IMG/VR virus record: IMGVR_UViG_2531839448_000006
Length of the DNA stretch: 41,535 nucleotides
Source: a virus
Taxonomy: Duplodnaviria; Heunggongvirae; Uroviricota; Caudoviricetes
Strand: one strand, 5' to 3'
Shown here piece by piece: positions 2,836 to 32,468 of the stretch. Under the pieces are notes generated by a model. The model did no database searches. It saw nothing but the letters and a program-made list of their open reading frames with translations, and was not told the DNA's origin. The translations under genes and the position numbers were made by a program. Positions within the stretch are counted from its first letter, which is position 1; each line of letters opens with the position of its first letter.

Positions 2836-3936
2836 TCATTCCATTTCGAGATCATCAACCTTCACTTCAAGCTCAAGACTGGTCGTAAAACCATTATCCG
2901 GGCTGACGGTATGTGTCAGAGTCGTAATGGTCCATTCCGCATCATCTATCGGCTGTTTAAAGCCACTGACTTTCACTGGCATTTCCGTGTAGAGATCTGC
3001 CCGCCCTTCCGCCAGTTGTAGCGAGAATGACGCAACGCCGCGTTGCAGGCGTTCCCACTGCATTTTCGCTGCCCGTTCGGCGTTACTCCGATTGGCATAG
3101 GTGCGATTGAGTACCAGCACGTTTTCATCCGTACCCACCAGGTAATCGCCCTGCTTCGCTTCCGGCTCTTTCTTCTGATTCTTCGTTCTGCGCTTACGCT
3201 TCACCGTAGTGCTTTCTTTCTTCGCGGGTTCGCGGGTATGCAACCAGCTGGCAATTACGCCCGTGTAGGCTCCGCGATCTGCCAGGGTAAAGCGGTGACT
3301 GTCGCCGTCCTTGCGTGTGATAGTGATCACCGGCAGTGGTTTACCGCTGGCGCTTTTACCCTGTCCCTGCCGGATGAATAACAGATTGCCATTTTTCACC
3401 GACGCAATAGCACCGTACTGGCGCGCCAGCCGCATCAGAAAACTGCCGTCACTCTCATTGGTCTGGTCTATATGTTCCACGGGCTTATCCGACAGGTCTT
3501 TACCCAGTGCCATCTTCAGCTTATGCCGCGAGGCTATTTCCTTCACCACTTCCCCAACGGTGGTCTTGTGCCACGACTTTTCACGGCGGGTATTCAGCGT
3601 TTCACGAAAATCAGCACTTCGCGCCCGGATAGTCAGGCGGTCCGGTGCGCCAGTGTGTTCAATCTCGTCCACCGTGAATGCCCCTTTAGGGAAAAGCGGC
3701 TGCCCCTTCCAGCCCAGCGCCAGCGTAATGACCGCACCACGGCGCGGCAGCACGATTTTTCCGTCGGCGTCGTCCAGCTCCAGATCAAGCTGGTCCGCTT
3801 CAAAGCCCCGATTGTCCGTCAGAGTCAAACTCATCAGGCGGTTATCCAGCACAGTGTTGATATCCCTGCCCTCAATACTGATGCTGAATGCGGGAGTTTT
3901 GTTGCCTTTGTTAAGCAGTTCAGAGCTGAAATTCAC
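2836..3936 (-). CDS. D: Tail protein D
   Basis: 366-aa product similar to P2 gpD (recalled); position between U and ogr. Confidence 0.85.
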   Translation of the reverse strand: MNFSSELLNKGNKTPAFSISIEGRDINTVLDNRLMSLTLTDNRGFEADQLDLELDDADGKIVLPRRGAVITLALGWKGQPLFPKGAFTVDEIEHTGAPDRLTIRARSADFRETLNTRREKSWHKTTVGEVVKEIASRHKLKMALGKDLSDKPVEHIDQTNESDGSFLMRLARQYGAIASVKNGNLLFIRQGQGKSASGKPLPVITITRKDGDSHRFTLADRGAYTGVIASWLHTREPAKKESTTVKRKRRTKNQKKEPEAKQGDYLVGTDENVLVLNRTYANRSNAERAAKMQWERLQRGVASFSLQLAEGRADLYTEMPVKVSGFKQPIDDAEWTITTLTHTVSPDNGFTTSLELEVKVDDLEME

Positions 3937-4418
3937 GACAGCAGCCCTCCCACCGTTTTACTGATATCACTTAAGGCAGATGTTGCCGTGTCCTGCAGAT
4001 TATTCAGCTGCGTACTGAGATCACCGAACATATCGGACAGGGATTCATCCACCCGTTTGAGCGACAGGGTGAACTCAATCCGGCGCGGCATACCGTCGCG
4101 GAAAAACTCCGTTTTAGTCAGATTCAGTCCCTCAATCACATACATGCCGTAAATCGTGCCGCTGCCTTCAATCAGGGGCCATGCTTTTCCCTGTTCTGCC
4201 ATCTGCTCCAGAGCCAGCAACGACAGCCTGCCGCCCGTTATCTCCGGCATAAGAACACCAGAAAGCGTCAGCATGTCGTTGTCCGGTCCCAGAAACTGCG
4301 TGGACGGACGACGGTTTACCCGGCTGTTTGCCGCATGTCGCCAGCTGCGTTGATACTGCAGTTCCTGATACGGAACGGTGCGCAGCATAAACACGTACAA
4401 TCCCAGCACCATCATCAT
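3933..4418 (-). CDS. U: Tail protein U
   Basis: 161 aa, P2 gpU-like; overlaps D start and T stop by 4 nt. Confidence 0.85.
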   Translation of the reverse strand: MMMVLGLYVFMLRTVPYQELQYQRSWRHAANSRVNRRPSTQFLGPDNDMLTLSGVLMPEITGGRLSLLALEQMAEQGKAWPLIEGSGTIYGMYVIEGLNLTKTEFFRDGMPRRIEFTLSLKRVDESLSDMFGDLSTQLNNLQDTATSALSDISKTVGGLLS

Positions 4419-7400
4419 GCGTCGTATCCCCCCTGATCGCTGTAGTTACTCCTGGCTTTTGCCTTCAGCCTGCGTTCACGTTCATCAAGCTGGCGTGCCA
4501 CCTCCCGCGCAATATCCTGCGCACTTTGTCCTGGCTGCGTCTGAATGATGATCTGCGTCGGTGCCTCAATCCGGTGAACGGGCGGCACAGTGGCTGCACG
4601 ACTCACCATCGCTTCGCCGCCTTTCGCGGGAAGTGCCAAAGGATGCAACGGTGGAAGCTCTGCAGGCGCGGCAGCAACGCCCATCATTCCGGCAACAACG
4701 GCAGCCAGTGCAGCTGTATTTCTCCGGCTGGTCACATTTGCCGGGCCGTTAACAATTTCCGGCCCGTTTTCACCGACGATGCCAAACTGCCCGCGCGGGA
4801 TATAGCCGCCGCTGTCATACATCCCCGCAAAGCCATATCCCCATGACGGAAAACCACCCGATGGCATCATCACTTTACCGTCTGCATTCACCGTCGCAGG
4901 TTGCTGACGCGTCACTCTTTCCGGCAATTTCGCCTTTGCAGCCTCTTTACTGACAATGCCGAGTTTCTCCAGCAACCAGGAAACGCCGGATTTCAGGGAG
5001 TCCAGCGGATGCATGACCATATTCAGCCCTTCCGCCAGTGCCTCCCCGAATCGTCGCCCCATTGCCGCTGCGCTCTGCAGTTCGGCAGAGGTCGACTTAA
5101 CGGGCGTCAGCAGATCAGTAAACCAGCCCCACAACGCCTGCACTTTGTCGCCAATCCACTGAAACACAGGCTTAAGTGGTTCGAATGCTGCACTGATGGG
5201 ACCTGCCGCCGCTTTGAATCCTTCCACCACACCAGCGAGAAATGCGGTGATGGGTTGCCAGTATTTCCAGACAACCAGCGCCACGCCCGCCAGTGCAGTA
5301 ACCACAAGACCTATCGGACTGAGCAGAGCACCTAACAGACCCGATATGGCATACAGGGCAACGCGCAGCATCGCCAGCGGACCGGATGCCAGTACTCGCA
5401 GCACCGCGCCTGCGGCAGCCAGTCCACCGCGTAGTGCTGCCAGTGGATTCATAAACATCACAGCAACAGCACGTAAACCGGATAATCCAGACCGCAACAG
5501 TGCAACCGGCACACCTACTACAGTTTTCAGGACATTCCCCGTCAGTGATGCCGTGCGGCGCAAAGACGACAACGGCGCAGTAAGTAAACCCGCTGCGTTG
5601 CCCGATGAAGCAAGCCCGCGTCGCAGCAGTGCCAGTGGAGCGCCAGCTAACCAGGACAACGCGCTGCTGGTTCGTGTTACTGCTGCCGTAACGGAAGGTA
5701 ACGTTTTGATACCCAGCACAGAGAATCCCAGACGGATGACTGCCAGCGGCCCCAGCACTGCAGCCAGCGCCACCACTAAGGTGCCGAGGCCTACGGTAAC
5801 CGCAGCCACAACAGCCGCTACTTTCATCAGTGTGCCTGTCAGTTCCGGGTTAGCTTCCACCCAGCGGCGCAACGCCCCCGTGATGCTTTTCACCGTGTAC
5901 AGAATATCCATCAGCGGCTGGCGCAGCGTTTCGCCCAGGCTGCTGAAGGTGTTCTGCGCTCCGGTTTTGACCAGTAACCACTGAGCAGAAAGTGAGTCCT
6001 TATTGATGTCGGATTCTTTCTGCATGGAGCCGAGCGCATCATTGCCCGCTGTCAGTTTTAACTGACGCTGCAGTTCCGGCAGGTTGTTTGCCAGTTTCGC
6101 CGCGTCATCGCCAAACTCTTTACCAAACAACATGGTCATGGCAGACAGACGCTTGTCCTGCGGCAGTGCGTTCACCTTCTCCAGCACACGCTGGATAGTT
6201 CCCATCGCATCCTTCGTCATCTGCTTTTCAATCACTTCAGGATTGAGTTTCAGCAGATTCATCCCTTCAAAGAAACTCTTGCTCTGCATGGTGGCAATGG
6301 ACAATTCACGCACCATCGCGTTTGCTGCACTGGCTGCAACCTCCGGCGCAGCGCCCAGTGTCAGGAAGGTGGAACCCAGCACCGCCGCTTTACGATAATC
6401 CAGACGGTCAGCCACACCGCCCAGACGTTGCATCACATCAATGATGTCCGCCCCTTTCGACATGGCGTTATCATCCAGATAGTTCAGCGCATCGCCGAGC
6501 TGTTCAATATTGCGGGTTGGTATTTTGTAGAGCTGGGCGATTTTCCCCAGACTTTCTGACAGTTCATCCGCTGGCAGCTCAAAGGCTGTTGCCGCCTTTG
6601 CTGCCGTACTGGCGAAGGCCAGCAGGTCACGTTTCTGGTCTTCCCAGCTGTCGTCAGGGTTTGCGACGTTCATGCGCGCACCACCTTCAACCAGTGCAGC
6701 GAAGTCCACCGCACCGTTTTCCATCGGCAACTGTTCGCTGGCAGCCTTGATGGCATCCTGCATTTCATAAAAACGTGCAGTGCGGTTGCCATTATCGTCA
6801 CGCAGACCATTGACCTGCTTTGCCACACCTTTCATGGCATCTTCCATGCTGGTATAGCTTTTTACTGCCGCCATCACTGGCGCACCCATTGCCAGCCCTG
6901 CAGCCGTGGTAGTGGCTCCGGCTCCTGCGATGCGATCGCGCACTTCAAGCCGTCTTGAGTATTGTTCTCTGGCAGCGTTCATCCGTGCCTGTTGTTCACC
7001 CAGACGTTTAAGTGCTTTTTGCTGGCCCTCCAGTGCCTGCCTTGTTTCTTCAGCATTTTTCTTAAGTTCTCGCTGGGCACTACTGAGTTGTCTGGTATCA
7101 ATCCCTGATTCTTTAAGTGCCTGACGTTGTCTCTGGACCGCCCCCAACAAGCCGTTATAGGTCTGCTGAAGTTCCTGTACTCGTGTTTTGGCCTGACTGA
7201 ATAACTTTGCCTGCGCGGCGGTTGGCCTGTTAGTGGCAGCAAATTGTGTGGCGAGTTTTGCCGCCTCTTCGCGGGCTGCGTTCAGGTTGTTGGCTGTTAT
7301 GGCTAGTTGCGAGCGCGTCTTGCGAAATTCATCAATTCTGCCAGCCTGCTTATTCAGTTCTTTGAGGCTGTTTCGGGTATTCTGAATTGCGCCAGCCAGC

Positions 7401-9779: not shown

Positions 9780-10193
9780 TTATCTGCTTGCAGGGAAAAC
9801 AGGCCAAATAATATCAGGTGCGGTGCTGGTATTTGTTGCCGTCACAGCCTCGATATAATCCAGCACAACGTTAAGTCGGGTAGTTTCCTCTTGCGTCAGT
9901 TTGCGCCCGGCCTGCAGCTTTAACTGAATCACGCTGATATTGGCCATTGCTGCGTCTAACAGCGACTGTTTTTTCTGTTCAGCGTCAGCTACCAGTTCAT
10001 CATGAGAACGTTCCTGAGTGGGTGGTGCAGTAAATCCCCCGTCTGAATAAACCCAGCCGATTCCGGGCTGCTCACTGATATCAGAAATATTAATGAGCTG
10101 CTGATTATCCGGCACTGTGAATTCAGCCTCGCCATCCCAGACAATGACATTCACAACCATCCCATTTTCAATAACTGCATATGACGTATTCAT
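9780..10193 (-). CDS. G: Tail fibre assembly protein G
   Basis: ATG at 10191-10193 overlaps the H stop codon (TAATG); 137 aa; position after H. Confidence 0.75.
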   Translation of the reverse strand: MNTSYAVIENGMVVNVIVWDGEAEFTVPDNQQLINISDISEQPGIGWVYSDGGFTAPPTQERSHDELVADAEQKKQSLLDAAMANISVIQLKLQAGRKLTQEETTRLNVVLDYIEAVTATNTSTAPDIIWPVFPASR

Positions 10194-12280
10194 TATGCAA
10201 ACTCCTCGATAATACAAATCCCTGAAGCGCCTTTCCCGCCCGTCATACTGGTTCCGCTATAACCGGCATCGTATGCGCCACCTCCGCCTGAACCATATGC
10301 TTTACCGATAACACCACCGCCAGCGCCTGCACGTCCACCGCCGCCCCAGTGCGATGTTCCGCCTTCACCGCTGACGCTGATATTTCCGGACTGACCGTCG
10401 CCTCCATCTCCACCAGTGATGCGGATATCGCCAGTACTCGGCACACCTCCGTTACCGCCGTTTGTGTTTGTAACACCCGCTTTCCCGCCACCTTCGCCAC
10501 CAGGAGCAATTAACGATGCGAATACGCTATTCCCGCCCCTGGTGCCGTTCGTCGCACTAACACCACCGGCCCCACCTGCGCCGATAGTGACTGGATAACT
10601 ATTCTGTGTCGGGGTCATTATTGAAATTATTGTTCCACCGGCCCCACCGCCAGCACCGAAAAACGTTTCATTATTGGATGCAGCCTTGCAGCCGCCCCCT
10701 CCGCCACCGCCGCCCGTTATTGTGACCCTGATCCGTTTTGTTCCTGGCGTCGGGGTGTATGTACCTGATGAGGTGAAAACCCGGGTATTCAGCCAGCGTC
10801 CAACGTATCCACTTGCATCGCTCAGACCAAGATATTGAATAACCGCCTGTGTGCTTGCTTTAGCCAGAATATTCCGTCCAACGTTAGTCAGGGTTGTCAG
10901 GCTGGCTGTATCATTCCCCGTAAAATACGGAAGTTTGTCTGCCGCAGTGGCAAGGCCTGCCAGTGCGGTCAGTGTGGCGTCGGCAGGTTGTTTTCCATTG
11001 GCAAGGTCATATACAGCCTTCACGGCTTTTGGTGTGGCAGCCTGCGTTTCTGACGTGCTGTTAGTGGCGCTGCTGAGTTGCACGGTACCTTTTACCGTCA
11101 GTGAAGCTGCAGGCACATCCGATATCTGGCTCCACGGGTGCGTGTGACTGACAGGTGCCTTACCTGCTGCAAGGTCATATGCCGCCTTCACTGCCTTTGG
11201 TGTGGCAGCCTGCGTTTCTGACGTGCTGTTAGTGGCGCTGCTGAGTTGCACGGTGCCTTTTACCGTCAGTGAAGCTGCAGGCACATCCGTTATCTGGCTC
11301 CACGGGTGCGTGTGACTGACAGGTGCCTTACCTGCTGCAAGGTCATATGCCGCCTTCACTGCCTTTGGTGTGGCAGCCTGCGTTTCTGACGTGCTGTTAG
11401 TGGCGCTGCTGAGTTGCACGGTGCCTTTTACCGTCAGTGAAGCTGCAGGCACATCCGTTATCTGATTCCACGGGTGTGTGTGACTGACAGGTGCCTTACC
11501 TGCTGCAAGGTCATATACAGCCTTCACTGCCTTTGGAGTGGCAGCCTGCGTTTCTGATGTGCTGTTAGTGGCGCTGCTGAGTTGCACAGTGCCTTTTACC
11601 GTCAGCGAGGCTGCAGGTACACCTGTTATCTGATTCCACGGGTGTGTGTGACTGGCGGATGCTTTACCTGCTGCAAGATCATATGCAGCCTTCACAGCCT
11701 TCGGTGTTGCGGCCAGTATTTCGGATTCACTGTTGGTCGCACTGCTTAACTGAGTAAAACCTTTTGCAGTCAGCGAGGCGTCCGGGTGACGTCGTGACTG
11801 TTCGTGCTCTGATATTTTGTCATCCACATACTTGCGGGTTGCCAGCACTACAGCAGGGTCGATTTTCAGGATGATATTGTCCGTACTACTGGTAATCAGC
11901 ACCATGCGCACGGTCTGGGTACGCCCACTGCCTTCAGCCAGTTGCGGCTTATAGCTTTCCGGGCAGTTACCCACGGCAATCAATGCCCCGGACTCATCAA
12001 ACAAGCCCACTTCACGTATCCACCAACCGCCCTCGTTTTCAGGGATCACCTGTTCAGCAATAATCTGGCTGCTGTTCTGCGGGTCGATATAGAGCATATT
12101 CAGCGCAGCCCGGCGTTTCTCATTTACCAGTGCTGTCTGCTTTGCGCCCGGCGTTGGTAATGTTCCGCCGCCATCGCCGACCGCCATATGGGTAATTTTT
12201 AAAGGCACACCGAGCGCGGCGGCGCTGGCAAGTTTCGCCGCGCCAATATCCGTCAGCAGGGTATAAAATTTTGTGCTCAT
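10193..12280 (-). CDS. H: Tail fibre protein H with internal tandem repeats and Gly-rich C-terminal domain
   Basis: 695 aa; N-terminus MSTKFYTLLTDIGAAKLASAA...MAVGDGGG is P2 gpH-like; five 56-aa repeats; C-terminal third is glycine-rich. Confidence 0.85.
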   Translation of the reverse strand: MSTKFYTLLTDIGAAKLASAAALGVPLKITHMAVGDGGGTLPTPGAKQTALVNEKRRAALNMLYIDPQNSSQIIAEQVIPENEGGWWIREVGLFDESGALIAVGNCPESYKPQLAEGSGRTQTVRMVLITSSTDNIILKIDPAVVLATRKYVDDKISEHEQSRRHPDASLTAKGFTQLSSATNSESEILAATPKAVKAAYDLAAGKASASHTHPWNQITGVPAASLTVKGTVQLSSATNSTSETQAATPKAVKAVYDLAAGKAPVSHTHPWNQITDVPAASLTVKGTVQLSSATNSTSETQAATPKAVKAAYDLAAGKAPVSHTHPWSQITDVPAASLTVKGTVQLSSATNSTSETQAATPKAVKAAYDLAAGKAPVSHTHPWSQISDVPAASLTVKGTVQLSSATNSTSETQAATPKAVKAVYDLANGKQPADATLTALAGLATAADKLPYFTGNDTASLTTLTNVGRNILAKASTQAVIQYLGLSDASGYVGRWLNTRVFTSSGTYTPTPGTKRIRVTITGGGGGGGGCKAASNNETFFGAGGGAGGTIISIMTPTQNSYPVTIGAGGAGGVSATNGTRGGNSVFASLIAPGGEGGGKAGVTNTNGGNGGVPSTGDIRITGGDGGDGQSGNISVSGEGGTSHWGGGGRAGAGGGVIGKAYGSGGGGAYDAGYSGTSMTGGKGASGICIIEEFA
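10991..11803 (-). repeat. Tandem 168-bp coding repeats (about 5 copies) inside tail fibre gene H
   Basis: Motif GCAAGGTCAT/GCAAGATCAT recurs at 11001, 11169, 11337, 11505 and 11673 (period 168 bp); encodes repeated HTHPWNQIT...LTVKGTVQLSSATNSTSETQAATPKAVKA units. Confidence 0.85.
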
Positions 12281-23544: not shown

Positions 23545-24066
23545 TCAGTTAATCAGTTTATTTAATGACTTAGACCACTTCTGTCCCAAATCATCAATAT
23601 CAAAATCACCATCTCGCTGCTGCCATTTAAAAACTAAGGCTATAAGTTCACTCTTGAGGATTCTTTTATAATAATCCTTAGATTTTAATTGCTCAAGTAT
23701 ATGTTCACCAACCTCAGCAAGCTTTCTATGATTTAATTCTGACAGATCTCGATGCAAATGGTTAACTGATTTATACAAAGTATTTCCTTCAGTACGAGAA
23801 ATATCAATACCTTTATCTTCAAACCATTGTGAATCAAGCCAAACCAAATCTATCGTAGCTGGCTCTGACATCGTGGTGGCAAGGGCAACAATAATTTTCT
23901 CTACCGATTCATCTTGAAAATCGATAGAGTCAGAAACCCAAACTGACAAGGTGTTATTAGAGGTCCTTGTGCAACCTGTTATCGCGTCTGCGGATATATT
24001 GTCAGGTGCTCTACCTTTATTACATTCCCATTTACTATGGGATATTTTACGCAATAAATATGTCAT
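23545..24066 (-). CDS. Hypothetical protein, third gene of AT-rich three-gene accessory operon
   Basis: 173-aa ORF; ATG overlaps upstream stop (TAATG) indicating translational coupling; no motif recognisable by eye; AT-rich versus prophage core. Confidence 0.6.
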   Translation of the reverse strand: MTYLLRKISHSKWECNKGRAPDNISADAITGCTRTSNNTLSVWVSDSIDFQDESVEKIIVALATTMSEPATIDLVWLDSQWFEDKGIDISRTEGNTLYKSVNHLHRDLSELNHRKLAEVGEHILEQLKSKDYYKRILKSELIALVFKWQQRDGDFDIDDLGQKWSKSLNKLIN

Positions 24067-24713
24067 TATAGACTTCTCAAATATCCTATAACTGCTTCTT
24101 TATATTCTTCCACCCAATCAGCATCAAATTTCCTCATTCTTTCAAGGACTGGAATAAATGATTTTTCCCCCCAAGACTCAACTGCACGGATCGCTGCCTC
24201 AAATATAAGTTCATTCTCAAGAGAACAAACTCCCATAATCATAGCGTCAGCTTTATTACCTAACCATTCATATTCAATAGTCGATGCAAAATTAATGAAG
24301 TTCTTTACATGTTGATCATTCATTCTGTACAATTGTACCCATGTCCTTTGAAAGGACTCTTGGAATAAATCCTGATTTTTATCATACAAGAACTCCATGT
24401 AAATCTGTGTCTTGCTTATCTCGCCTTCAATGTAATCTTCTGAACATGTTAACTCAATTAGTCTAGAGGTACATTTTGAAACCTGAATTTCAAAGTTCTG
24501 CTTAGTTGACGAACCTTGATTTATTGACTCAGTCTCTAATTGAAAGCCACCATTTGTTTTGCTATGTGACAGCTCATTTCTTTTAATATCAGCGTAAATG
24601 ATATTGTTACCATCATAATAATCAGAAAATGCACCTATTGAACTTACCCCATTTTTAAACTTAGGTAAGCCAAAAGGCTTTTCATCACTTATTATAAAAC
24701 TATTCTTTACCAT
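24066..24713 (-). CDS. Hypothetical protein, second gene of three-gene accessory operon
   Basis: 215-aa ORF starting 10 nt after the upstream stop with GGTGA just upstream of the ATG; no recognisable motif. Confidence 0.6.
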   Translation of the reverse strand: MVKNSFIISDEKPFGLPKFKNGVSSIGAFSDYYDGNNIIYADIKRNELSHSKTNGGFQLETESINQGSSTKQNFEIQVSKCTSRLIELTCSEDYIEGEISKTQIYMEFLYDKNQDLFQESFQRTWVQLYRMNDQHVKNFINFASTIEYEWLGNKADAMIMGVCSLENELIFEAAIRAVESWGEKSFIPVLERMRKFDADWVEEYKEAVIGYLRSL

Positions 24714-24722
24714 AGCATCACC

Positions 24723-25418
24723 TTACAGAGAAGTGTAGCGTTGTAAATTATCAATAGTTTTAAGATTGTCCTGACACAATAACTCTAGCACGCGGATATA
24801 TTCATCCCAACCAAACCGCATATATCCATTTTGAGGAAGAGTATTAGTATCAGTTTCAAATAATACGCAATCACTTGGCATACCATTATTCAAAAATGGA
24901 GCTGAAATTTCAGCGCGTCTAATTGTACTAATACTATTAATTTCTTCCTGATACTCTTCAATATTTTTCCTTACAGCTATACGATTGTCCCACTCAAATG
25001 GATTAACACCTTTATAGGTAAACAAAGCATTGTAAAGCGAAAAGTAAACAGATTCATCCCCTTGATAGATACGTGAATTCAGAACAGCTATCCTATTTCC
25101 TTTTTTCATCGGAAATACGTTTTGTAGTTCCCTAGATATAGATAGAACCATTTCTGAAAACGCTTGAGGTTCCCCCCCCAAACCATTAAAAATGATTCCA
25201 TGGCTAGGAAACTCGACTCTTACTGTTTGATTGGTATCTACCATGATAAGAATTTGCTTTTTCTCACCAGTGATGGCATTAATCTCCTGACCAAAAGTAG
25301 GTACAAATCCAAATTTTCCAATCTTATCAAGCATAGATCCAATAGTTAGTGTATTTGGAACTATATCATTATTATTTGTGAAAAAATTAATCTGATGCGT
25401 CTGTTCAATCAATTTCAT
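24723..25418 (-). CDS. Hypothetical protein, first gene of three-gene accessory operon
   Basis: 231-aa ORF with strong RBS (AAGGAG, 5-nt spacer) before ATG at 25416-25418; no recognisable motif. Confidence 0.6.
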   Translation of the reverse strand: MKLIEQTHQINFFTNNNDIVPNTLTIGSMLDKIGKFGFVPTFGQEINAITGEKKQILIMVDTNQTVRVEFPSHGIIFNGLGGEPQAFSEMVLSISRELQNVFPMKKGNRIAVLNSRIYQGDESVYFSLYNALFTYKGVNPFEWDNRIAVRKNIEEYQEEINSISTIRRAEISAPFLNNGMPSDCVLFETDTNTLPQNGYMRFGWDEYIRVLELLCQDNLKTIDNLQRYTSL

Positions 25419-25653: not shown

Positions 25654-25788
25654 CTTAGCAAAAACGATCCTCAAACGATCATGCGATCTCATGCGGCATA
25701 GACATGCACTACAGAGCTAACGCCTCGCAAGGGCTCGTTGTTCAACCTTGCTGACGCCAGAAGCAAGTTCAGACGCCAGCAACGTTTC

Positions 25789-26374: not shown

Positions 26375-28789
26375 TTAATACAGGTTCCGCCACTGATCAT
26401 CTTCCTGCAAACGCTGGCTCCGATAGAAGATACGCAGGCCTGCTCCTGACGGAATACTGCCTCCGCGAAGGAGTAAATCGACCTCTTTCTCGCTGCCATC
26501 AAATCCTCTGGACTTCAGCTCATACACGAGCTGCAGTCGCTGATGGTCTGTAATTCGCTGTTTGTAGTCTTTACGCCGTTTCGGTTTCACCAGGCATAAC
26601 CTTGCTGCCAGTTCCCGGCGCTCTTTTTTGCTCATACTGTGCAGGTAATCGTGCAACTCCTTGTCATCCATGCTGGTAATGTCCGTTCTGGGGTCCCCAT
26701 CAGCTGATTTATCTTTCTCCTGTTGGTTCAAATTTTCAGCAAGGGGACAGTTATTGCCACGAGTCCAAGGGGCGCAAGCGCCCTGGTCGGCTGCCGCCTC
26801 CTGAACGTCAACGGCTTTACGAACCATTTTCCACTTCACTGCATGAGTGCAGATCTTGCCCTCTGCAATGGGTGACCAGATGCCATAAATACGAATACCG
26901 TGATCGCCATAGGCGGTCGGCTCTTCGTTGATTTCATAAGCGGTTCTGATGAGGTGATATTTACGGGGAACCAGTACGCCGCCCTGCTTCATGATGTAGG
27001 TGGCAAAGCAACCAGCATCAGCTGCAGCCAGAATGGCATCAAGGCGCTGGTTATCCAGTACCGGCGCACCTGCTTTTTTGTCACCCTGTTGCCTTGCCGC
27101 CTGACCAGCCAGCAATCGCAGTTCACGGTAAGCCTGACGCCCCGGAATGCCAAAGAAGCGGAATTGCTGAACACGATGCAGAGACGCCCAGGCATTAACG
27201 TATTCAGCGTTATCACGCAGAGATTTACCCGTTTCCTTGCTGATCTCGCCAGCCAGACCACGCCCGTCAATGTTCTTACTGATATATTTCGCGATGTAGC
27301 TTGTCGGCGTTCCTTTGCGCGGGTTAATCAACTCAGACTTAAAGCGCGGCCCAGTGTTATTGCCCAGCTCCTCGCGGTCTTCACGGATGGCAAACTTACG
27401 CAGTAATGCAGTGATGGCGCGGCGGTCTTTTTTGCGCATAAAACACAACAGGTGCCAGTGAACTGTACCGTCATGATGCGGCTCAGCCACCCGCACGCCA
27501 TACCAGCGCAATCCGGCTTTGTGCATCGCCTTACGAAATGCAGCAAACATGCCGACCAGATAGTCGCTGCTTTGTCTTACCGTCGAGTTTGTCCAGGTCG
27601 GGTTGGGTCTGCCGTTATTGAGCGTGGAATGGAAACGCGACGGACAGGTGATAGTGTAGAAAACGGCGCAGTCACCGCGCATTTCCGCGATAAGCTCCAG
27701 ACCTTTAACACAGGCCATCATCTCATTGCGGCGATGCGCCGGGTTGCTGCTGCTGGCGTTTACCACATCTTCCATATCCAGCGTGTCGCCGTCTTCGTTC
27801 ACCAGTTCATGAGAACGGAAAAACTCCAGCGACTTACGGCGCTGCTCACGTTTATGCATCACGGCTTCATAGCTGACATAGGGGGATGCTTTTTTGCTGA
27901 CCAGGCAGACAGCACGCAACTGCTCTTCCCGCCATTCGCAACGCATCTTCCATAATTTCCGATACCACCAGTCGGCACACAACATACGCGCCAGCGAACC
28001 CGGAATGAGTTCATAGGGCACGGGTTTACGGCGGTTTCTTTTCCGACGGAGTTGCTCAAACGCAGGCGGAATAACATCCAGACGCAGGGTTTCCGCTGCC
28101 ACCTTTTCCCATGTTTTGCGGATTTCTTCTGGCTTAACGTCATCGGTGGCATACAAATCACCACAAGCGGCATCAAGGCACATGCTCATATGCGCAGCGA
28201 CAAGGGTGGACAGGCGCTTCACCTGATCCTGACTCATTTCAGGCAGGATAAGCAGGCCATCCAGCCCTTCATGGCTTGCCATAAAGCGAAAAGAAGTGGA
28301 TAGCTGACAGTCGCGGACATGCTCCAGTCGTTCCAGACATGGCTTAATCGTCTCACGCAAATAGCGGGAATAAGCCTTTGGCCTGCCCAGGCTGCTGAAA
28401 TATTCAATACGTTGCATCAGCGGCTTGCTGATATGGGAAGGCTGGGCGTTGACGTCAGCCAGAATGACCATGTCCGGATTAAAACGCTGCTGCTCATGCG
28501 CCAGCTTTGCCCGGCTAATGAGCTTATCCTGCTCCATTTCGCGCTGGACAGGATCACGGGATTCATTAAAGAAATAACGCTCCCAGACCTGATCACTCAG
28601 TGCCTCGCGGCGCAGTTGTTCCTGCTCGTTATCGGCAGCGTACAGAGTGATCAGGTTTGAAAGTGCAGAAACCGGCGCAACTTCCGCCGGGTCCAGATAA
28701 GGGTTAATGGCCTTTTTTGGGCTGTTCCATGAGAATGCTGCGGCGACCTCGTTAAAGCCGCTGCAGTTGTTCATATCAGCATGGCTCAT
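26375..28789 (-). CDS. A: Replication initiation endonuclease A (rolling-circle initiator)
   Basis: Large ORF at the P2 gene A position; track start is TTG at 28816, first ATG at 28787-28789 overlaps the dam stop codon (ATGA). Confidence 0.8.
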
Positions 28790-29643
28790 GCACGCACTCC
28801 GTACACGGCGGAACAATCCACGCCACGCGAAGGATCAAATCCTATCCAGCAGCGCGGCCCGGCAACAGCAATGATTTCTGTTGCAGATTTACTCTCACCA
28901 GCTGCCACGCCGATGCTGCGTTTTGCCTTGATGTAGTGGTGAGTAAAATTGCGATACAGCGAACGGATCAGGGATGTGTCACTGTTAGAAATAATGACCG
29001 GATATCCTTCTGATGACCAATGTTCAAGAACAGATGCCAGGTGATACTGGTCATCTTCAGTGAAACCATCAGTGTGATAGCCGGAAAACGTACCGTCATA
29101 AGGCGGATCGCAATACACCACATCCCCCGCGTGCAACATCGCCAGCGTTTCATCGAAGCTGGCGCAGATAAACGTTGCCCGCTGGGCTTTTACTGCAAAT
29201 GCACGAATTTCTTTTTCAGGAAAATACGGATTTTTATAATTACCGTAGGGAATGTTGAAATGCCCGCTCTTGTTATAGCGACATAAACCACGGTAACCGT
29301 GACGATTGAGATACAGGAAATATATCGCTTTCATAAAATCAGTAATTTCAGTTGAGTAATTAAACTCCTGCCTTATGTTGTAATAATCCATCTCCCTGTT
29401 TGCGTTCTCAAATAAAACTCTGGCGCGAGATATAAACGATTCACAATCAGCGGCAACCTTTTTATAGAGGTTGATTAAATCAGGATTAATATCCGCAACC
29501 AGATAGCTGGGATAATCCGTCTCCATCATCACAGCACAGGAACCCGCGAAAGGTTCAACCAGTCGCGGGCCAGCAGGAAGATGTTTTTTCAGTTCGGACA
29601 TTATGGCAGTTTTATTTCCCGCCCATTTCAGGATGGTGCTCAT
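28786..29643 (-). CDS. dam: DNA adenine methyltransferase (Dam-like, N6-adenine)
   Basis: Catalytic DPPY motif ([10 protein letters not shown]) and N-terminal KWAGNK...FAGS AdoMet-binding region; ATG at 29641-29643 with GGAGG RBS. Confidence 0.85.
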
Positions 29644-29867
29644 ACAGCACCTCCGTTGTAATGTTTGCCTTTCAGCTCTGCGATTTCCTGACAGGTAATG
29701 CAAAGCTGCACACCCGGAATGGCACGGCGGCGTGCTGGCGGAATTGGCGCTTCACACTCAATGCAAAGCACGCGGGACACGCCCGGCGTTTTGGCACGGG
29801 CAGCACGGATATGGCGTTGGCGTTCTTCTTCAACGCGCTGCTGTACGAGATCCATTGCATCAGCCAT
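29640..29867 (-). CDS. TraR/DksA-family C4 zinc-finger protein
   Basis: 75 aa with CIECEAPIPPARRRAIPGVQLCITCQ four-cysteine motif; stop overlaps dam start. Confidence 0.7.
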   Translation of the reverse strand: MADAMDLVQQRVEEERQRHIRAARAKTPGVSRVLCIECEAPIPPARRRAIPGVQLCITCQEIAELKGKHYNGGAV

Positions 29868-30106
29868 TAGTGGATCTCCTGCGCTTCGTTCTGGATTGCT
29901 TCAGCAGTCACACGAAGCAGTTCTGCCGCTTCCACGTGGTTTAGCTGGCGGGATGAGATATGACACGCCAGGCTATCAAGGCGAGCTGCCATTGCTTCAG
30001 CCCTTGCCCGGCGTTCTTCCAGACGAGCCTCTGTCAGTAAAATATTAAGCCCTGCGTCAGCCGGTCCGGTTTTGGTCGAGAGGGTTTCAATATTACGCAT
30101 AATCAA
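29867..30106 (-). CDS. Hypothetical early-operon protein
   Basis: 79-aa ORF in the early operon; start of downstream gene overlaps its stop (TAATG). Confidence 0.5.
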   Translation of the reverse strand: MIMRNIETLSTKTGPADAGLNILLTEARLEERRARAEAMAARLDSLACHISSRQLNHVEAAELLRVTAEAIQNEAQEIH

Positions 30107-30531: not shown

Positions 30532-30756
30532 CTATCGCTCTTTGTTCTTACGGTAACGCTCAAGAGGAGATATATTTTTTCGTATCATCTCTTTAACCTG
30601 CTCTCCCCGTAAAAACGTCCCATCCTTTAGCGTGAAAAAGTAACTGCCATCGCCCGACAACGACGGATAACAACAGAGCAAATCATCTTCAGATACTGAA
30701 TAACTCTCCCCTCTGTAACGAAACTGATAAACCACTTCACTTTCCGCTGCATACAT
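30532..30756 (-). CDS. Hypothetical protein (overlaps the next ORF in another frame)
   Basis: 74-aa ORF; overlaps 30627..30953 by 130 nt, so one of the two is spurious or the pair is a frameshifted gene. Confidence 0.3.
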   Translation of the reverse strand: MYAAESEVVYQFRYRGESYSVSEDDLLCCYPSLSGDGSYFFTLKDGTFLRGEQVKEMIRKNISPLERYRKNKER

Positions 30757-30953
30757 TTTGACTTTCTTCGTATCCCCGTGGTCAATTCAGACAGCAATTC
30801 ATCTTGTGAACGGCACGGATGCCAGCGTTTACCATCCTCACCCATGATCCAGCCGTGACCGTAGTGCATTGCCGGGCTTTGTTTTACCAGCAGCGATGCA
30901 AATGATGGTTCTTTCGTCAGCATAAGCACCTCACAGCAAACCGAATGAAGCAC
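30627..30953 (-). CDS. Hypothetical protein (alternative start MLTKEPSF at 30923)
   Basis: 108-aa ORF immediately downstream of CII-like gene; 130-nt out-of-frame overlap with 30532..30756. Confidence 0.35.
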   Translation of the reverse strand: MLHSVCCEVLMLTKEPSFASLLVKQSPAMHYGHGWIMGEDGKRWHPCRSQDELLSELTTGIRRKSKCMQRKVKWFISFVTEGRVIQYLKMICSVVIRRCRAMAVTFSR

Positions 30954-31440
30954 CGAGGCCAGTCACGGTATCAACTGCACTCGCCATCGCAGGATTAGCC
31001 TGTAAACGGGCCTGCAATGAAACAGCAGCCAGCGCCATCAGTCGTGTTACAGAGTTAATGCTGCTGATAGCATCACGACGACCTGCACTGGTTTTTACAT
31101 CGCCAGATACCGCACCTGCAGCAACACGCCCGATCTCTGCGGTTGCACTCATGACGTAATGTGGCAGTTTCTCTTTTGCCACCTCATTAATCGGTACACA
31201 TGGCAGACAATGAATCTGTGCCAGAAAACCATCTATCAGCGTTGAGTCTTCTGTCAGATCGGTAAGCAGCCAGATTTCTGGCGCATTGAGCTGATGCGGT
31301 TGATCTGGGTTGAGTTTGTTTCGCAGTGTCTGAACATTCATTCCTGCACGTTCTGCCAGCTTCGCCATATTGTGACGTAGTGCAAAAGCTCTACAGGCTT
31401 CATCAAAATACGGATGTTTGGAAATCTTGTAATCAAACAT
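30931..31440 (-). CDS. cII: Phage 186 CII-like transcriptional activator
   Basis: 169 aa, the same length as 186 CII; N-terminal HTH-like region; GGGGG RBS; sits just inside the lytic operon after the Apl-like gene. Family assignment from memory. Confidence 0.6.
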   Translation of the reverse strand: MFDYKISKHPYFDEACRAFALRHNMAKLAERAGMNVQTLRNKLNPDQPHQLNAPEIWLLTDLTEDSTLIDGFLAQIHCLPCVPINEVAKEKLPHYVMSATAEIGRVAAGAVSGDVKTSAGRRDAISSINSVTRLMALAAVSLQARLQANPAMASAVDTVTGLGASFGLL

Positions 31441-31555
31441 GCTGCCCCCTTAGAAAGTTCCCATAATTGAACTTACTTACCAACAATGACGCGGAAGTTG
31501 GAATGTCCGAGGGATTCACGGACCTGATCAGTTTTGTACATCAGATAACGCAGAC

Positions 31556-31714
31556 TTACGCGGCCTTTGTTTTTTCTTTCTTGACCATGTACTTAGCAAG
31601 TTGACCATGGTGAATTTTTTGGTAAACAGAGCCGCGGGAAATGCCCTCCCACTCTGCGAACTCTGCAGGTGTTGCCATCTCTTTTGGTACACGAATTGAA
31701 ATATCAGTACTCAT
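31556..31714 (-). CDS. Small HTH protein, Apl/Cox/excisionase-like (first gene of lytic operon)
   Basis: Manually translated 52-aa ORF (MSTDISIRVPKEMATPAEFAEWEGISRGSVYQKIHHGQLAKYMVKKEKTKAA), below the ORF-track length cutoff; divergent from the repressor gene across a 121-bp switch region. Confidence 0.5.
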   Translation of the reverse strand: MSTDISIRVPKEMATPAEFAEWEGISRGSVYQKIHHGQLAKYMVKKEKTKAA

Positions 31715-31801
31715 AGTGCAGTATCTCTTACTTTGTGTGCGTGTTAGTTCGTTTTAGCCCGTCTCTTAAACTCTCACATCAAGAGACAAGAAAACATTAC
31801 G

Positions 31802-31816
31802 ATCTTGATTCAAGAT
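31802..31816. promoter_or_regulatory. Candidate operator palindrome in the lysis-lysogeny switch region
   Basis: Perfect 15-bp palindrome ATCTTGATTCAAGAT 20 bp upstream of the repressor ATG; a second inverted repeat GTCTCTT...AAGAGAC at 31761-31787. Confidence 0.3.
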
Positions 31817-31835
31817 TGTCAAATGGAGATTACCA

Positions 31836-32468
31836 ATGTTAAACATCAGAATGGGTTCCGATACGGGAGGTAAAGCAGCTATTGAGAGGCTGCTTGCGGC
31901 TTATGGATTCACAACTAAGCAGGCATTAAGTGAGCACCTGAATGTCTCAAAAAGCACTATGGCAAACAGAGTGTTACGTGACAGCTTTCCTGCTGACTGG
32001 ATAATTCAGTGCGCACTAGAAACCGGTGTTTCGTTGCTTTGGTTAGCTACAGGACAGGGAAGCATGAAAGCAGGATCTGAGACTGAAAAAAGATCTCATA
32101 ATGAGAACAAACAAGCAATTAAACCGTTATCTAAACTCATAACTCCATCTATTCCTAAAGGAACCTTGGAGAATGGACAACTCAGTATTGATGAAGAGAT
32201 TTTCCTAGACCACAGCATATTACCTGCAAATTATGAAGAATCGATGTTCTTAGAAACCCCTACTGATTGTTATCTCATCGATAAATCAGTTAAACAAGTC
32301 AGCAATGGATTCTGGCTTATCAATATTGATGGAATGATTATTATTGCAAAAATTATGCGGATTCCCGGCAATAAGATTGTAGTAAATCAAGATGAAGCGT
32401 CTTTCGAGTGCTCTGCTGATGATGTGGAAGTTATTGGGCGTGCAGTCAAAGTAATAAAGAGTATCTAA
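31836..32468 (+). CDS. cI: CI-like immunity repressor (186 type)
   Basis: 210 aa with N-terminal HTH (TKQALSEHLNVSKSTMANRV); no obvious S24 peptidase Ser/Lys autocleavage motif; transcribed with int. Confidence 0.7.
   Translation: MLNIRMGSDTGGKAAIERLLAAYGFTTKQALSEHLNVSKSTMANRVLRDSFPADWIIQCALETGVSLLWLATGQGSMKAGSETEKRSHNENKQAIKPLSKLITPSIPKGTLENGQLSIDEEIFLDHSILPANYEESMFLETPTDCYLIDKSVKQVSNGFWLINIDGMIIIAKIMRIPGNKIVVNQDEASFECSADDVEVIGRAVKVIKSI

Follow-up and report, generated by a model that had tools for sequence, protein, structure and literature searches.

Hsu, Inouye and Inouye (1990) reportedly described the Dam methylase of a 186-related prophage that carries retron Ec67, a protein of 285 amino acids and thus of the same length as the one studied here, and a 186-related retron-Ec67 prophage is also said to be the subject of Dodd and Egan (1996). 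Other phage Dams, namely those of T4/T2, P1, HP1 and VT-2, are likewise orphan GATC methyltransferases and are generally viewed as serving anti-restriction or self-methylation. Among the P2/186-like prophages of E. coli, Salmonella and Klebsiella, many carry a dam gene just upstream of the replication gene, and a Klebsiella Fels-2-like prophage with identical gene order has been explicitly compared with the Ec67 element.

Here, we analysed such a locus within a stretch of 41,535 nucleotides of tailed-phage DNA (IMG/VR record IMGVR_UViG_2531839448_000006; the window). Its Dam is 94% identical to E. coli ELD71839.1, which annotators named 'retron EC67 DNA adenine methylase' by similarity. A first reading of the letters without database searches (the sequence-only reading) had remarked that some retron-carrying 186-like prophages harbor a dam gene; the work attributed to Hsu et al. 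1990 and Dodd & Egan 1996 and the 94% identical namesake bear this out.

A Dam-type methyltransferase gene distinct from host dam

The dam gene (28786–29643, minus strand) extends from an ATG at 29643–29641 to a TGA at 28788–28786 (858 nt, 285 codons), with a GGAGG located 5 nt upstream of the start codon, and encodes a 285-aa N6-adenine DNA methyltransferase of the Dam family (D12, alpha-class). A 100% identical locus in E. coli CV839-06 bears RefSeq gene calls with the same dam coordinates, and RefSeq names the identical gene product (WP_000104161.1) "DNA adenine methylase". PF02086 matched residues 7–244 over profile positions 1–253 (E = 7.4e-77; 258.9 bits against a threshold of 22), TIGR00571 returned 317.9 bits (cut-off 114.85), and alignment to the E. 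coli Dam structure 2g1p gave 47% identity over 258 residues. Together, these matches confirmed the initial call of a DPPY-motif adenine methyltransferase, the motif being encoded at 29098–29109. The prophage dam is thus a real and ordinary Dam-type gene, already annotated and already known.

The sequence-only reading had left room for the ORF being the host dam gene, an identity that we reject on the grounds of the 47% identity, the prophage context and a score of 289.4 bits against the host-Dam equivalog model NF008152 of NCBIfam (cut-off 441). While chromosomal dam resides in a damX-dam-rpe locus, the prophage gene is flanked by phage genes within an early lytic operon. The two enzymes belong to a common fold family, share DPPY and the residues contacting the GATC bases (structures 2g1p and 4gol), and both are without a partner nuclease; the prophage protein differs by N120R, R137N and a 5-residue deletion after DPPY, and by a conserved 22-aa C-terminal tail (W-x-G-x-D-x3-G-x-D) that host Dam does not have. 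Work in Salmonella on prophage reintegration and Dam was set aside, as its subject is host Dam and another prophage.

Close homologs of the prophage dam were found in 1239 of 5426 complete E. coli genomes, almost a quarter. Since the A gene of this phage is present in 1289 E. coli genomes, dam is a stable gene of the lineage rather than sporadic cargo.

Conserved residues and predicted GATC specificity

To define residue invariance, we used 147 homologs at 70–100% identity to the prophage Dam. The catalytic motif IV, (D/N)PP(Y/F), corresponds to D179-P-P-Y182 and is present in ~144 of them. The AdoMet-binding motif I reads E30-P-F-A-G-S-C, aligned to E-P-F-V-G-A-G of E. coli; F32, G34 and D51 (the counterpart of E. 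coli D54) are conserved and show no variation, and the last glycine of the motif is a cysteine across the prophage lineage. K9, Y119, L122, R124, P134, Y138 and D181-P-P-Y184 of E. coli Dam are all retained in the alignment to 2g1p and 4gol, and the key catalytic and DNA-contact residues are invariant in ~145 of the 147 homologs. The roles of these contact residues reportedly go back to the Dam-DNA structure of Horton et al. 2006; we take K9, L122, R124 and P134 to be the readers of the GATC bases, and Y119 and Y138 to be intercalating. Purifying selection acts over the whole protein (dN/dS 0.14–0.24). Structure prediction yielded a poor model (mean pLDDT 66, with the C-terminal tail below 50). 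Judging by its residues, the prophage Dam is probably an active, GATC-specific m6A enzyme.

dam is part of the early lytic operon

The prophage that carries the gene is P2/186-like (Peduoviridae, Fels-2/RE-2010/Cartapus-type), and dam is one of the genes of its early lytic operon. The early placement already proposed from the letters was borne out by the gene content, with CI, Apl/Cox, CII, DUF2732, the zinc-finger gene, dam, A and DinI all in the prophage. A candidate early lytic promoter (pR/Pe-like; 31815–31842, minus strand), located in the gap that separates apl/cox from the divergently oriented CI repressor gene, was picked up by a consensus scan only (TTAACA-16-GACAAT); its position matches that of pR of phage 186, and it may act as the early promoter. 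On the same strand follow the apl/cox excisionase-repressor gene as the first of the operon (31556–31714), the cII-like regulator gene (30931–31440; PF06892 Phage_CP76, E = 7e-43), a DUF2732 gene positioned as in P2 (orf80) and 186 (29867–30106; PF10809, E = 3e-28), a DksA/TraR-type C4 zinc-finger gene (29640–29867; PF01258, E = 3e-11; TIGR02419, 65.8 bits; phrog_54), dam, and the gene for the replication initiator A (26375–28789; PF05840 Phage_GPA, E = 3.5e-127). In the window, apl/cox is truncated to a 52-aa ORF by a 1-nt deletion (A6 vs A7 near 31569), the RefSeq product in CV839-06 being 80 aa long. The predicted gpA, a rolling-circle nickase, is 31–33% identical to the A proteins of P2 and 186, and an ori-like nick region within its gene (26750–26790, minus strand; GCGCCCCTTGGACTCGTGGCAATAACTGT) aligned to the annotated P2 and 186 nick sites. 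No convincing attachment-site repeats were found inside the window.

Overlapping reading frames chain dam to the zinc-finger gene and to gene A

Read on the minus strand, the two ATGA overlaps claimed for the flanks of dam are directly evident, each spanning 4 nt: the one at 29643–29640 joins the zinc-finger stop (the gene ends GTA TGA) to the dam start, and that at 28789–28786 joins the dam stop to the start of A, whose ATG is preceded by a GGAG. In homologous genes from different species, the dam 3′ end is ATGA or GTGA in 32 of 33 intact copies, and the dam start is ATGA or GTGA in 32 of 37 loci (all loci considered). The overlaps are not due to chance. Likewise, a gpA homolog lies downstream of dam in all 35 untruncated loci from other species, directly adjacent in most.

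The end of dam is further predicted to form RNA stem-loops in which the start codon of gene A is paired (28779–28828, minus strand; MFE −48.8 kcal/mol, z = −2.35), with 4 of 200 shuffled sequences being equally stable. According to the RefSeq record of phage 186, translating orf84 to its end appears necessary for translation of A, and orf84 fills the position of dam there, overlapping A by the same ATGA. By analogy, dam translation probably also feeds that of gene A.

Proposed function

We favor, with a probability of roughly 0.6, the reading that dam is an early-operon GATC methylase that fully methylates replicating phage DNA when host Dam limits and that, in addition, is coupled to gene A. 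The reading builds on observed features: the enzyme family, the conserved catalytic and DNA-contact residues, the operon position, the overlaps and their conservation, and purifying selection. Enzymatic activity, GATC specificity, the time at which the gene is expressed and its benefit to the phage are inferred. After induction or infection, the repressor-controlled early promoter would drive dam together with the initiator A, in a translational chain running across the zinc-finger stop/dam start and dam stop/A start overlaps. The Dam product would then methylate the ~100 GATC sites on each of many new phage genomes at a time when the small host Dam pool may be unable to keep pace with phage copies. 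Progeny DNA would consequently be fully methylated, which may shield it from nucleases cutting at GATC-containing sites that are un- or hemimethylated, and spare it the action of host MutH and SeqA on hemimethylated DNA. A second, purely structural role would be that ribosomes ending dam bring translation to gene A, as in phage 186.

Relatives carry further DNA methyltransferases in the same slot between the zinc-finger gene and A, either C5-cytosine enzymes or a second D12 enzyme, and a role in DNA self-modification fits this pattern. In a preprint, Bobonis et al. describe host Dam as rate-limiting for high-copy DNA and treat phage Dams as anti-restriction functions. The prophage contains 103 GATC sites, a mild depletion only (observed/expected 0.68); strong avoidance or enrichment of GATC was rejected, the value lying among those of other 4-bp palindromes and being uninformative. 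Because enterobacterial hosts have their own Dam, it is not obvious that unmethylated GATC would expose phage DNA to restriction in the natural hosts, and since P2 and 186 thrive without any dam, the gene is dispensable for this phage type. Control of the replication origin by Dam was likewise rejected: no GATC occurs in the ori-like region located by comparison with P2 and 186, leaving a direct role in replication initiation unsupported.

Alternative readings

The region between the zinc-finger gene and A invites a broader interpretation. It houses non-essential genes in 186 (orf82-orf83-orf84) and P2 (orf83), whose products, i.e. an RNase T-like exonuclease, a DUF5405 protein and a PAPS-reductase-like protein, are unrelated to Dam. 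With Dam, a second D12 methylase, a C5-cytosine methylase, ASCH/DUF3850 and the PAPS-reductase-like and RNase T-like exonuclease modules all found in this slot, it could represent an unrecognised hotspot of counter-defence (DNA self-modification) whose interchangeable modules are translationally chained to the initiator. The N120R and R137N changes fixed in this Dam lineage and its conserved tail could then confer something that host Dam does not have, for example an altered processivity or an ability to dock onto the replication machinery. We put this forward tentatively and consider it rather improbable as a whole; papers on P2 hotspots make no mention of this dam gene.

A separate observation concerns the defence hotspot between gpA and gpQ, where the window holds a rare three-gene cassette (23545–25418) that is more interesting than dam and occurs in only 4 of 5426 complete E. 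coli genomes. Its first protein gave a confident structure model with only weak, TBP-like fold matches.

Alternatively, Dam might be expressed in the lysogen, raising or re-patterning host GATC methylation, with consequences for the expression of phase-variable or virulence genes, for the mutation rate or for the timing of replication. A review states that orphan methyltransferases, prophage-encoded ones included, can alter host phenotypes, and prophage dam is widespread in pathogenic enterobacteria. However, the gene lies within a CI-repressed lytic operon, a consensus scan of its upstream region, the zinc-finger gene included, turned up nothing resembling a promoter for dam itself, and a core-genome Dam with the same predicted specificity is already present in the host, which together render an epigenetic role in the lysogen less likely. 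Moreover, the true conversion genes of these phages are separate low-GC cassettes, whereas dam is chained to a replication gene. We therefore regard lysogenic conversion as unlikely.

Equally unlikely is the notion that the enzyme has a changed or relaxed specificity and methylates non-GATC or additional sites, widening protection against restriction enzymes. It could draw on the modest identity to E. coli Dam and on two DNA-contacting positions changed lineage-wide, N120 to R and R137 to N or H (E. coli Dam numbering); a D12-type enzyme with very relaxed specificity is on record from Serratia phage OS31. Yet every base-specific GATC contact residue of E. coli Dam is conserved and invariant, and a paper title reports Dam function for the Ec67 homolog. 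Since the substitutions sit at DNA contacts, an altered preference for flanking sequence or altered processivity is conceivable, but a departure from GATC appears improbable.

Could dam instead serve mainly as a translational leader for gene A, its methyltransferase activity being dispensable or lost? The retention of the downstream overlap, the predicted structure at the A start, the use of an unrelated PAPS-reductase-like gene in this role in 186, and two relatives with disrupted dam copies (L043 and L044) would be in keeping with this. A mere leader has no need of 285 conserved codons, though, and neither the near-invariance of catalytic and DNA-binding residues nor the low dN/dS along the entire protein would be expected of one, making this interpretation very unlikely.

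Finally, that Dam is the methylase half of a restriction-modification system with an unrecognised nuclease is hardly credible: Dam is also hit by PADLOC models of Type II methyltransferases, and the three prophage ORFs at 23545–25418 have no known function, but the best PADLOC model is 'orphan methyltransferase', both dam neighbors are identified (zinc finger and gpA), their order around dam recurs in 35 loci across many genera with no nuclease there, and the cassette lies 3.4 kb from dam, is vastly rarer among E. coli genomes (4 vs 1239) and starts with a protein whose fold weakly resembles TBP rather than a nuclease. Neither Pfam nor PADLOC detected a nuclease or restriction family in the genes adjoining dam, upholding the original claim that no restriction gene is adjacent, and Pfam, NCBIfam, PADLOC and PDB searches found no nuclease in the nearby ORFs of unknown function.

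Implications

As a discovery, the early-operon dam gene counts for little, with RefSeq and many phage records already listing it by name and its kind published in 1990. Its practical relevance is modest: once a prophage is induced, such a Dam can keep some GATC sites methylated in hosts mutated in dam, and such enzymes may help these very common prophages to cross restriction barriers. Overproduction of Dam (that of E. coli, Salmonella and phage P1) has been demonstrated to activate at least one retron defence system. The conserved chaining to a replication gene makes this lineage convenient for testing what benefit a second Dam confers in a Dam-positive host.

Comparison with known systems

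Comparison of the early operons with those of P2 and 186, as suggested from the outset, showed the same slot, but with no methyltransferase there in either phage. The Dams of T4 (only 69 bits) and P1 (~36% identical) are much more distant from the window Dam, and the dam genes of T4/T2, P1, HP1 and VT-2 occupy other genomic positions, none being chained to a gpA-type initiator. The Dam of Escherichia phage ESSI2_ev040 is 49% identical, and its gene, too, overlaps A by ATGA.

The Ec67-type prophage shares with the window the protein family and the 186-related kind of prophage, whereas the window prophage is without a retron: no Rfam family reached its gathering score in the window, and the cos-proximal cassette contains no reverse-transcriptase domain. 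The cos-proximal slot holds a retron in the Ec67/Ec86 phages and the three-gene cassette here. Close homologs in the same gene order are carried by sequenced phages that include many from Klebsiella. Such counterparts are Salmonella phage RE-2010, Escherichia phage Cartapus and Klebsiella phages 4LV2017, KP12 and ST15-OXA48phi14.1, whose dam genes are 91–96% identical at the nucleotide level. Differences from the window Dam are allelic only (16 amino-acid changes in the case of Cartapus Dam), and this group displays the same order of zinc-finger gene, dam and gpA with the same 4-nt overlaps, while its flanking cargo cassettes differ.

A Dam-type phage gene in the early lytic operon

The 858-nt dam frame (28786-29643, minus strand; ATG at 29643, TGA at 28788-28786) encodes a protein that covers the whole profile of the D12-class N6-adenine methyltransferases (PF02086, E 7.4e-77) and scores 318 bits against the NCBIfam Dam family model TIGR00571 (cut-off 115), with the DPPY codons at 29098-29109. 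An alternative TTG start in the ORF list would extend the gene to 28786-29703; RefSeq places the start at the ATG at 29643 in the 100% identical locus of E. coli CV839-06, and GGAGG lies 5 nt 5′ of this ATG. Directly 5′ is the gene for a DksA/TraR C4 zinc-finger protein (29640-29867, minus strand, 75 codons; PF01258, TIGR02419, phrog_54), whose 3′ end reads GTA-TGA and whose stop falls, together with the dam start, within the ATGA at 29643-29640. Directly 3′, the start of the 804-codon gene A, encoding the replication initiator gpA (PF05840, E 3.5e-127), shares the ATGA at 28789-28786 with the dam stop. The coordinates and ORF anatomy given by the sequence-only reading, i.e. start and stop codons, both ATGA overlaps and the DPPY motif, were thus exact when read from the minus strand.

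Farther 5′ of the zinc-finger gene follow DUF2732, DUF5347, cII and apl/cox, then the divergent CI repressor and the integrase; a DinI/Tum-like gene lies 3′ of gene A, and the remaining window contains the usual late genes (portal, terminase, capsid, lysis, baseplate, tail fibre, sheath). The dam region constitutes the early lytic operon of a P2-like phage (Peduoviridae) of the 186 type.

Several features of this operon were recorded in passing. The gpA of this lineage, 31-33% identical overall to P2 and 186 gpA, carries an N-terminal insertion of ~60 residues relative to them (residues ~30-95; window ~28500-28700). In apl/cox (31473-31715), a 1-base deletion at ~31563-31572 (A6 versus A7 in CV839-06) shifts the frame and shortens the excisionase-repressor from 80 to 52 residues; this may reflect genuine inactivation by mutation or an error in sequencing the homopolymer. 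The identical RefSeq locus annotates the cell-division inhibitor gene fil (30768-30923) as truncated; a 74-aa ORF (30532-30756, phrog_4312) follows it. Just 3′ of the dinI-like gene, three GATC sites fall within 23 nt (25666-25688; GAGATCGCATGATCGTTTGAGGATCG), immediately followed by a strong terminator-like hairpin (GCCCGCCAGAACTGGCGGGCTTTTG).

That the gene belongs to the phage had been proposed, and this reading holds. The protein shares 47% identity with E. coli Dam over 258 aligned residues, its score against the host-Dam equivalog model (289 bits) is under the cut-off of 441, and phage genes flank it on both sides, ruling out the host dam gene. A separate origin is suggested by its G+C content, since 46% is below the 53-57% of its neighbours.

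Predicted activity and specificity

Alignment to the sequences of E. coli Dam crystal structures indicated that K9, Y119, L122, R124, P134, Y138 and D181-P-P-Y184 are all kept, and these residues are invariant in ~145 of 147 homologues (70-100% identity). In the 2006 Dam-DNA structure of Horton and colleagues, they reportedly read GATC and form the active site. Two DNA-contacting positions carry lineage-fixed changes (N120 to R; R137 to N or H), and five residues are deleted after DPPY in the lineage. The lineage further conserves a 22-residue C-terminal tail (residues 264-285; window 28789-28854) with the pattern W-x-G-x-D-x3-G-x-D, which host Dam lacks; W266, G268, D270, G274, D276 and V283 are common to the lineage. 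The structure model of the protein is poor, with a pLDDT below 50 in the tail. Constraint on the tail seems to act on the protein, as conservation of the underlying nucleotide sequence is not unusual. Across the gene, dN/dS is 0.24 in the comparison with phage Cartapus and 0.14 in that with a Klebsiella phage, versus ~0.075 for the essential initiator gene A. These values point to purifying selection on dam that is somewhat milder than on A.

Prevalence of dam and other cargo of the prophage

Megablast retrieved dam from 56 phage records, 46 of which cover at least 80% of the gene length, including Salmonella phage RE-2010, Escherichia phage Cartapus and dozens of Klebsiella phages; annotated records place a DNA (adenine) methyltransferase between the zinc-finger and gpA genes. 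Among 5426 complete E. coli genomes, 1239 carry dam, labelled 'DNA adenine methylase', and 1289 carry the A gene of the lineage; dam is therefore a near-constant part of this phage lineage rather than occasional cargo. The exact protein sequence occurs on 307 contigs, and its cluster at 90% comprises 4038 members, among them a protein named 'retron EC67 DNA adenine methylase' that is 94% identical to the window protein. A 34-kb E. coli element with retron Ec67 is reported to encode a Dam methylase (Hsu et al. 1990), and this element was later reported to be a 186-related prophage (Dodd & Egan 1996), in agreement with the earlier statement that some retron-carrying 186-like prophages carry dam. 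A Fels-2-like prophage of Klebsiella has been described in a paper that reports exactly the gene order of the window and compares it with Ec67. The interpretation as a Dam-type, operon-embedded phage gene with overlapping neighbours and no restriction partner was right overall, but dam has long been known in this lineage, where it is widespread and already annotated. What is mildly new is limited to three points: seeing the slot between the zinc-finger gene and A as a patchwork of genes for DNA modification that are chained to the initiator, the substitutions fixed in this lineage, and the conserved C-terminal tail.

A better candidate for novelty than dam is a cassette in the cos-proximal gpA-gpQ region, which has been described in the literature as a defence hotspot in P2-like phages and which retrons Ec67 and Ec86 occupy in their phages. 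Here, three co-directional ORFs of low G+C content (34.6%) span 23545-25418 on the minus strand (24723-25418, 24066-24713 and 23545-24066). They matched no family in Pfam, NCBIfam or PADLOC, had no significant match in the PDB and hit only PHROGs of unknown function. The cassette is present in only 4 of the 5426 E. coli genomes and was found in no phage record; the three genes occur together again in Erwinia billingiae (63-75% identity) and, in a non-prophage context, in Acinetobacter baumannii (36-42%). The first protein was modelled with confidence (pLDDT 92), and its only fold matches were weak and TBP-like. We regard the cassette as a candidate for an uncharacterised defence system.

Elsewhere in the window, a dCTP deaminase anti-phage gene (33866-35608, minus strand; PADLOC dCTPase 483 bits, dCMP_cyt_deam_1 domain, 33% G+C) directly adjoins the prophage integrase gene. 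The tail-fibre gene (10193-12280) contains four tandem 168-nt units at 10984-11787, 79-95% identical to the reference copy. A transposase gene (1149-2267; DDE_Tnp_1, E 1.6e-26) near the left end of the window adjoins the late-gene end of the prophage, and no attachment-site repeats were found within the window.

Stop/start chaining in the zinc-finger-to-A slot

At the dam/A junction, predicted RNA hairpins pair the A start codon (-48.8 kcal/mol, z -2.35), with equal stability reached by 4 of 200 shuffled sequences; similar folding is predicted at the zinc-finger/dam junction (z -2.70). Such hairpins would be compatible with the proposed translational coupling, without proving it.

One scan of species-representative genomes yielded 37 loci with a Dam at least 58% identical (Escherichia, Citrobacter, Enterobacter, Kluyvera, Kosakonia, Pantoea, Erwinia, Tatumella, Rosenbergiella, Mixta and others). 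A zinc-finger homologue precedes dam in every one of the 37, and a gpA homologue, 31-98% identical to that of the window, lies 3′ in each of the 35 loci uncut by a contig end. The 3′ end of dam is ATGA or GTGA in 32 of 33 intact copies; two further copies (loci L043 and L044) are disrupted. Additional genes separate the zinc-finger gene from dam in seven loci, the scanned inserts being DUF3850/ASCH, an RNase T-like exonuclease or a second D12 methyltransferase. Between dam and A, four loci carry a gene of 1 kb. It is PAPS-reductase-like in L017 and, judged by a similar N-terminus, in L023; in L020 and L021 it encodes a C5-cytosine methyltransferase. As these inserts each end in GTGA, like the [A/G]TGA ends of the dam copies, the slot itself conserves the stop/start chaining into A, whichever gene occupies it. 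DNA-modifying enzymes are common there. Loci with extra slot genes beside dam include L008, L012, L014, L017, L020, L021 and L035 (~3100-5900 in each).

Proposed role of dam

Since no promoter-like site was found directly 5′ of dam, expression would be expected from the early lytic promoter beside the CI gene; once the prophage is induced or a cell infected, the enzyme would be produced alongside the replication initiator. We favour a role in which Dam would methylate the replicating phage DNA, giving fully methylated progeny genomes, while its translation would also bring ribosomes to gene A. Self-methylation is favoured because host Dam is described as rate-limiting when DNA is present in many copies, and phage Dams as anti-restriction functions (both Bobonis et al., preprint), and because the prophage has 103 GATC sites, a mild depletion (observed/expected 0.68) similar to that of other palindromes.

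An action on the host epigenome of the lysogen, the other function raised by the sequence-only reading, is less likely: dam sits in a repressor-controlled lytic operon with no promoter-like site of its own found 5′ of it, and the host already has a Dam. That dam is half of a restriction-modification pair with an unrecognised nuclease is very unlikely, its flanks being identified as zinc finger and gpA. A direct role at the origin is unsupported, as the ori-like sequence, mapped from annotated P2/186 nick sites, contains no GATC.

Comparison with P2 and 186

Comparing the early operons of P2 and 186, as had been recommended, revealed dam in neither. Where the window has dam, P2 has orf83 (DUF5405) between the zinc-finger gene and A, whereas 186 has three non-essential genes, encoding an RNase T-like exonuclease, a DUF5405 protein and the PAPS-reductase-like orf84. 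According to the 186 record, translation of A appears to need translation through the end of orf84, and a terminator early in A is active when A is untranslated. The orf84/A overlap of 186 is ATGA, as is that of dam and A in the window.
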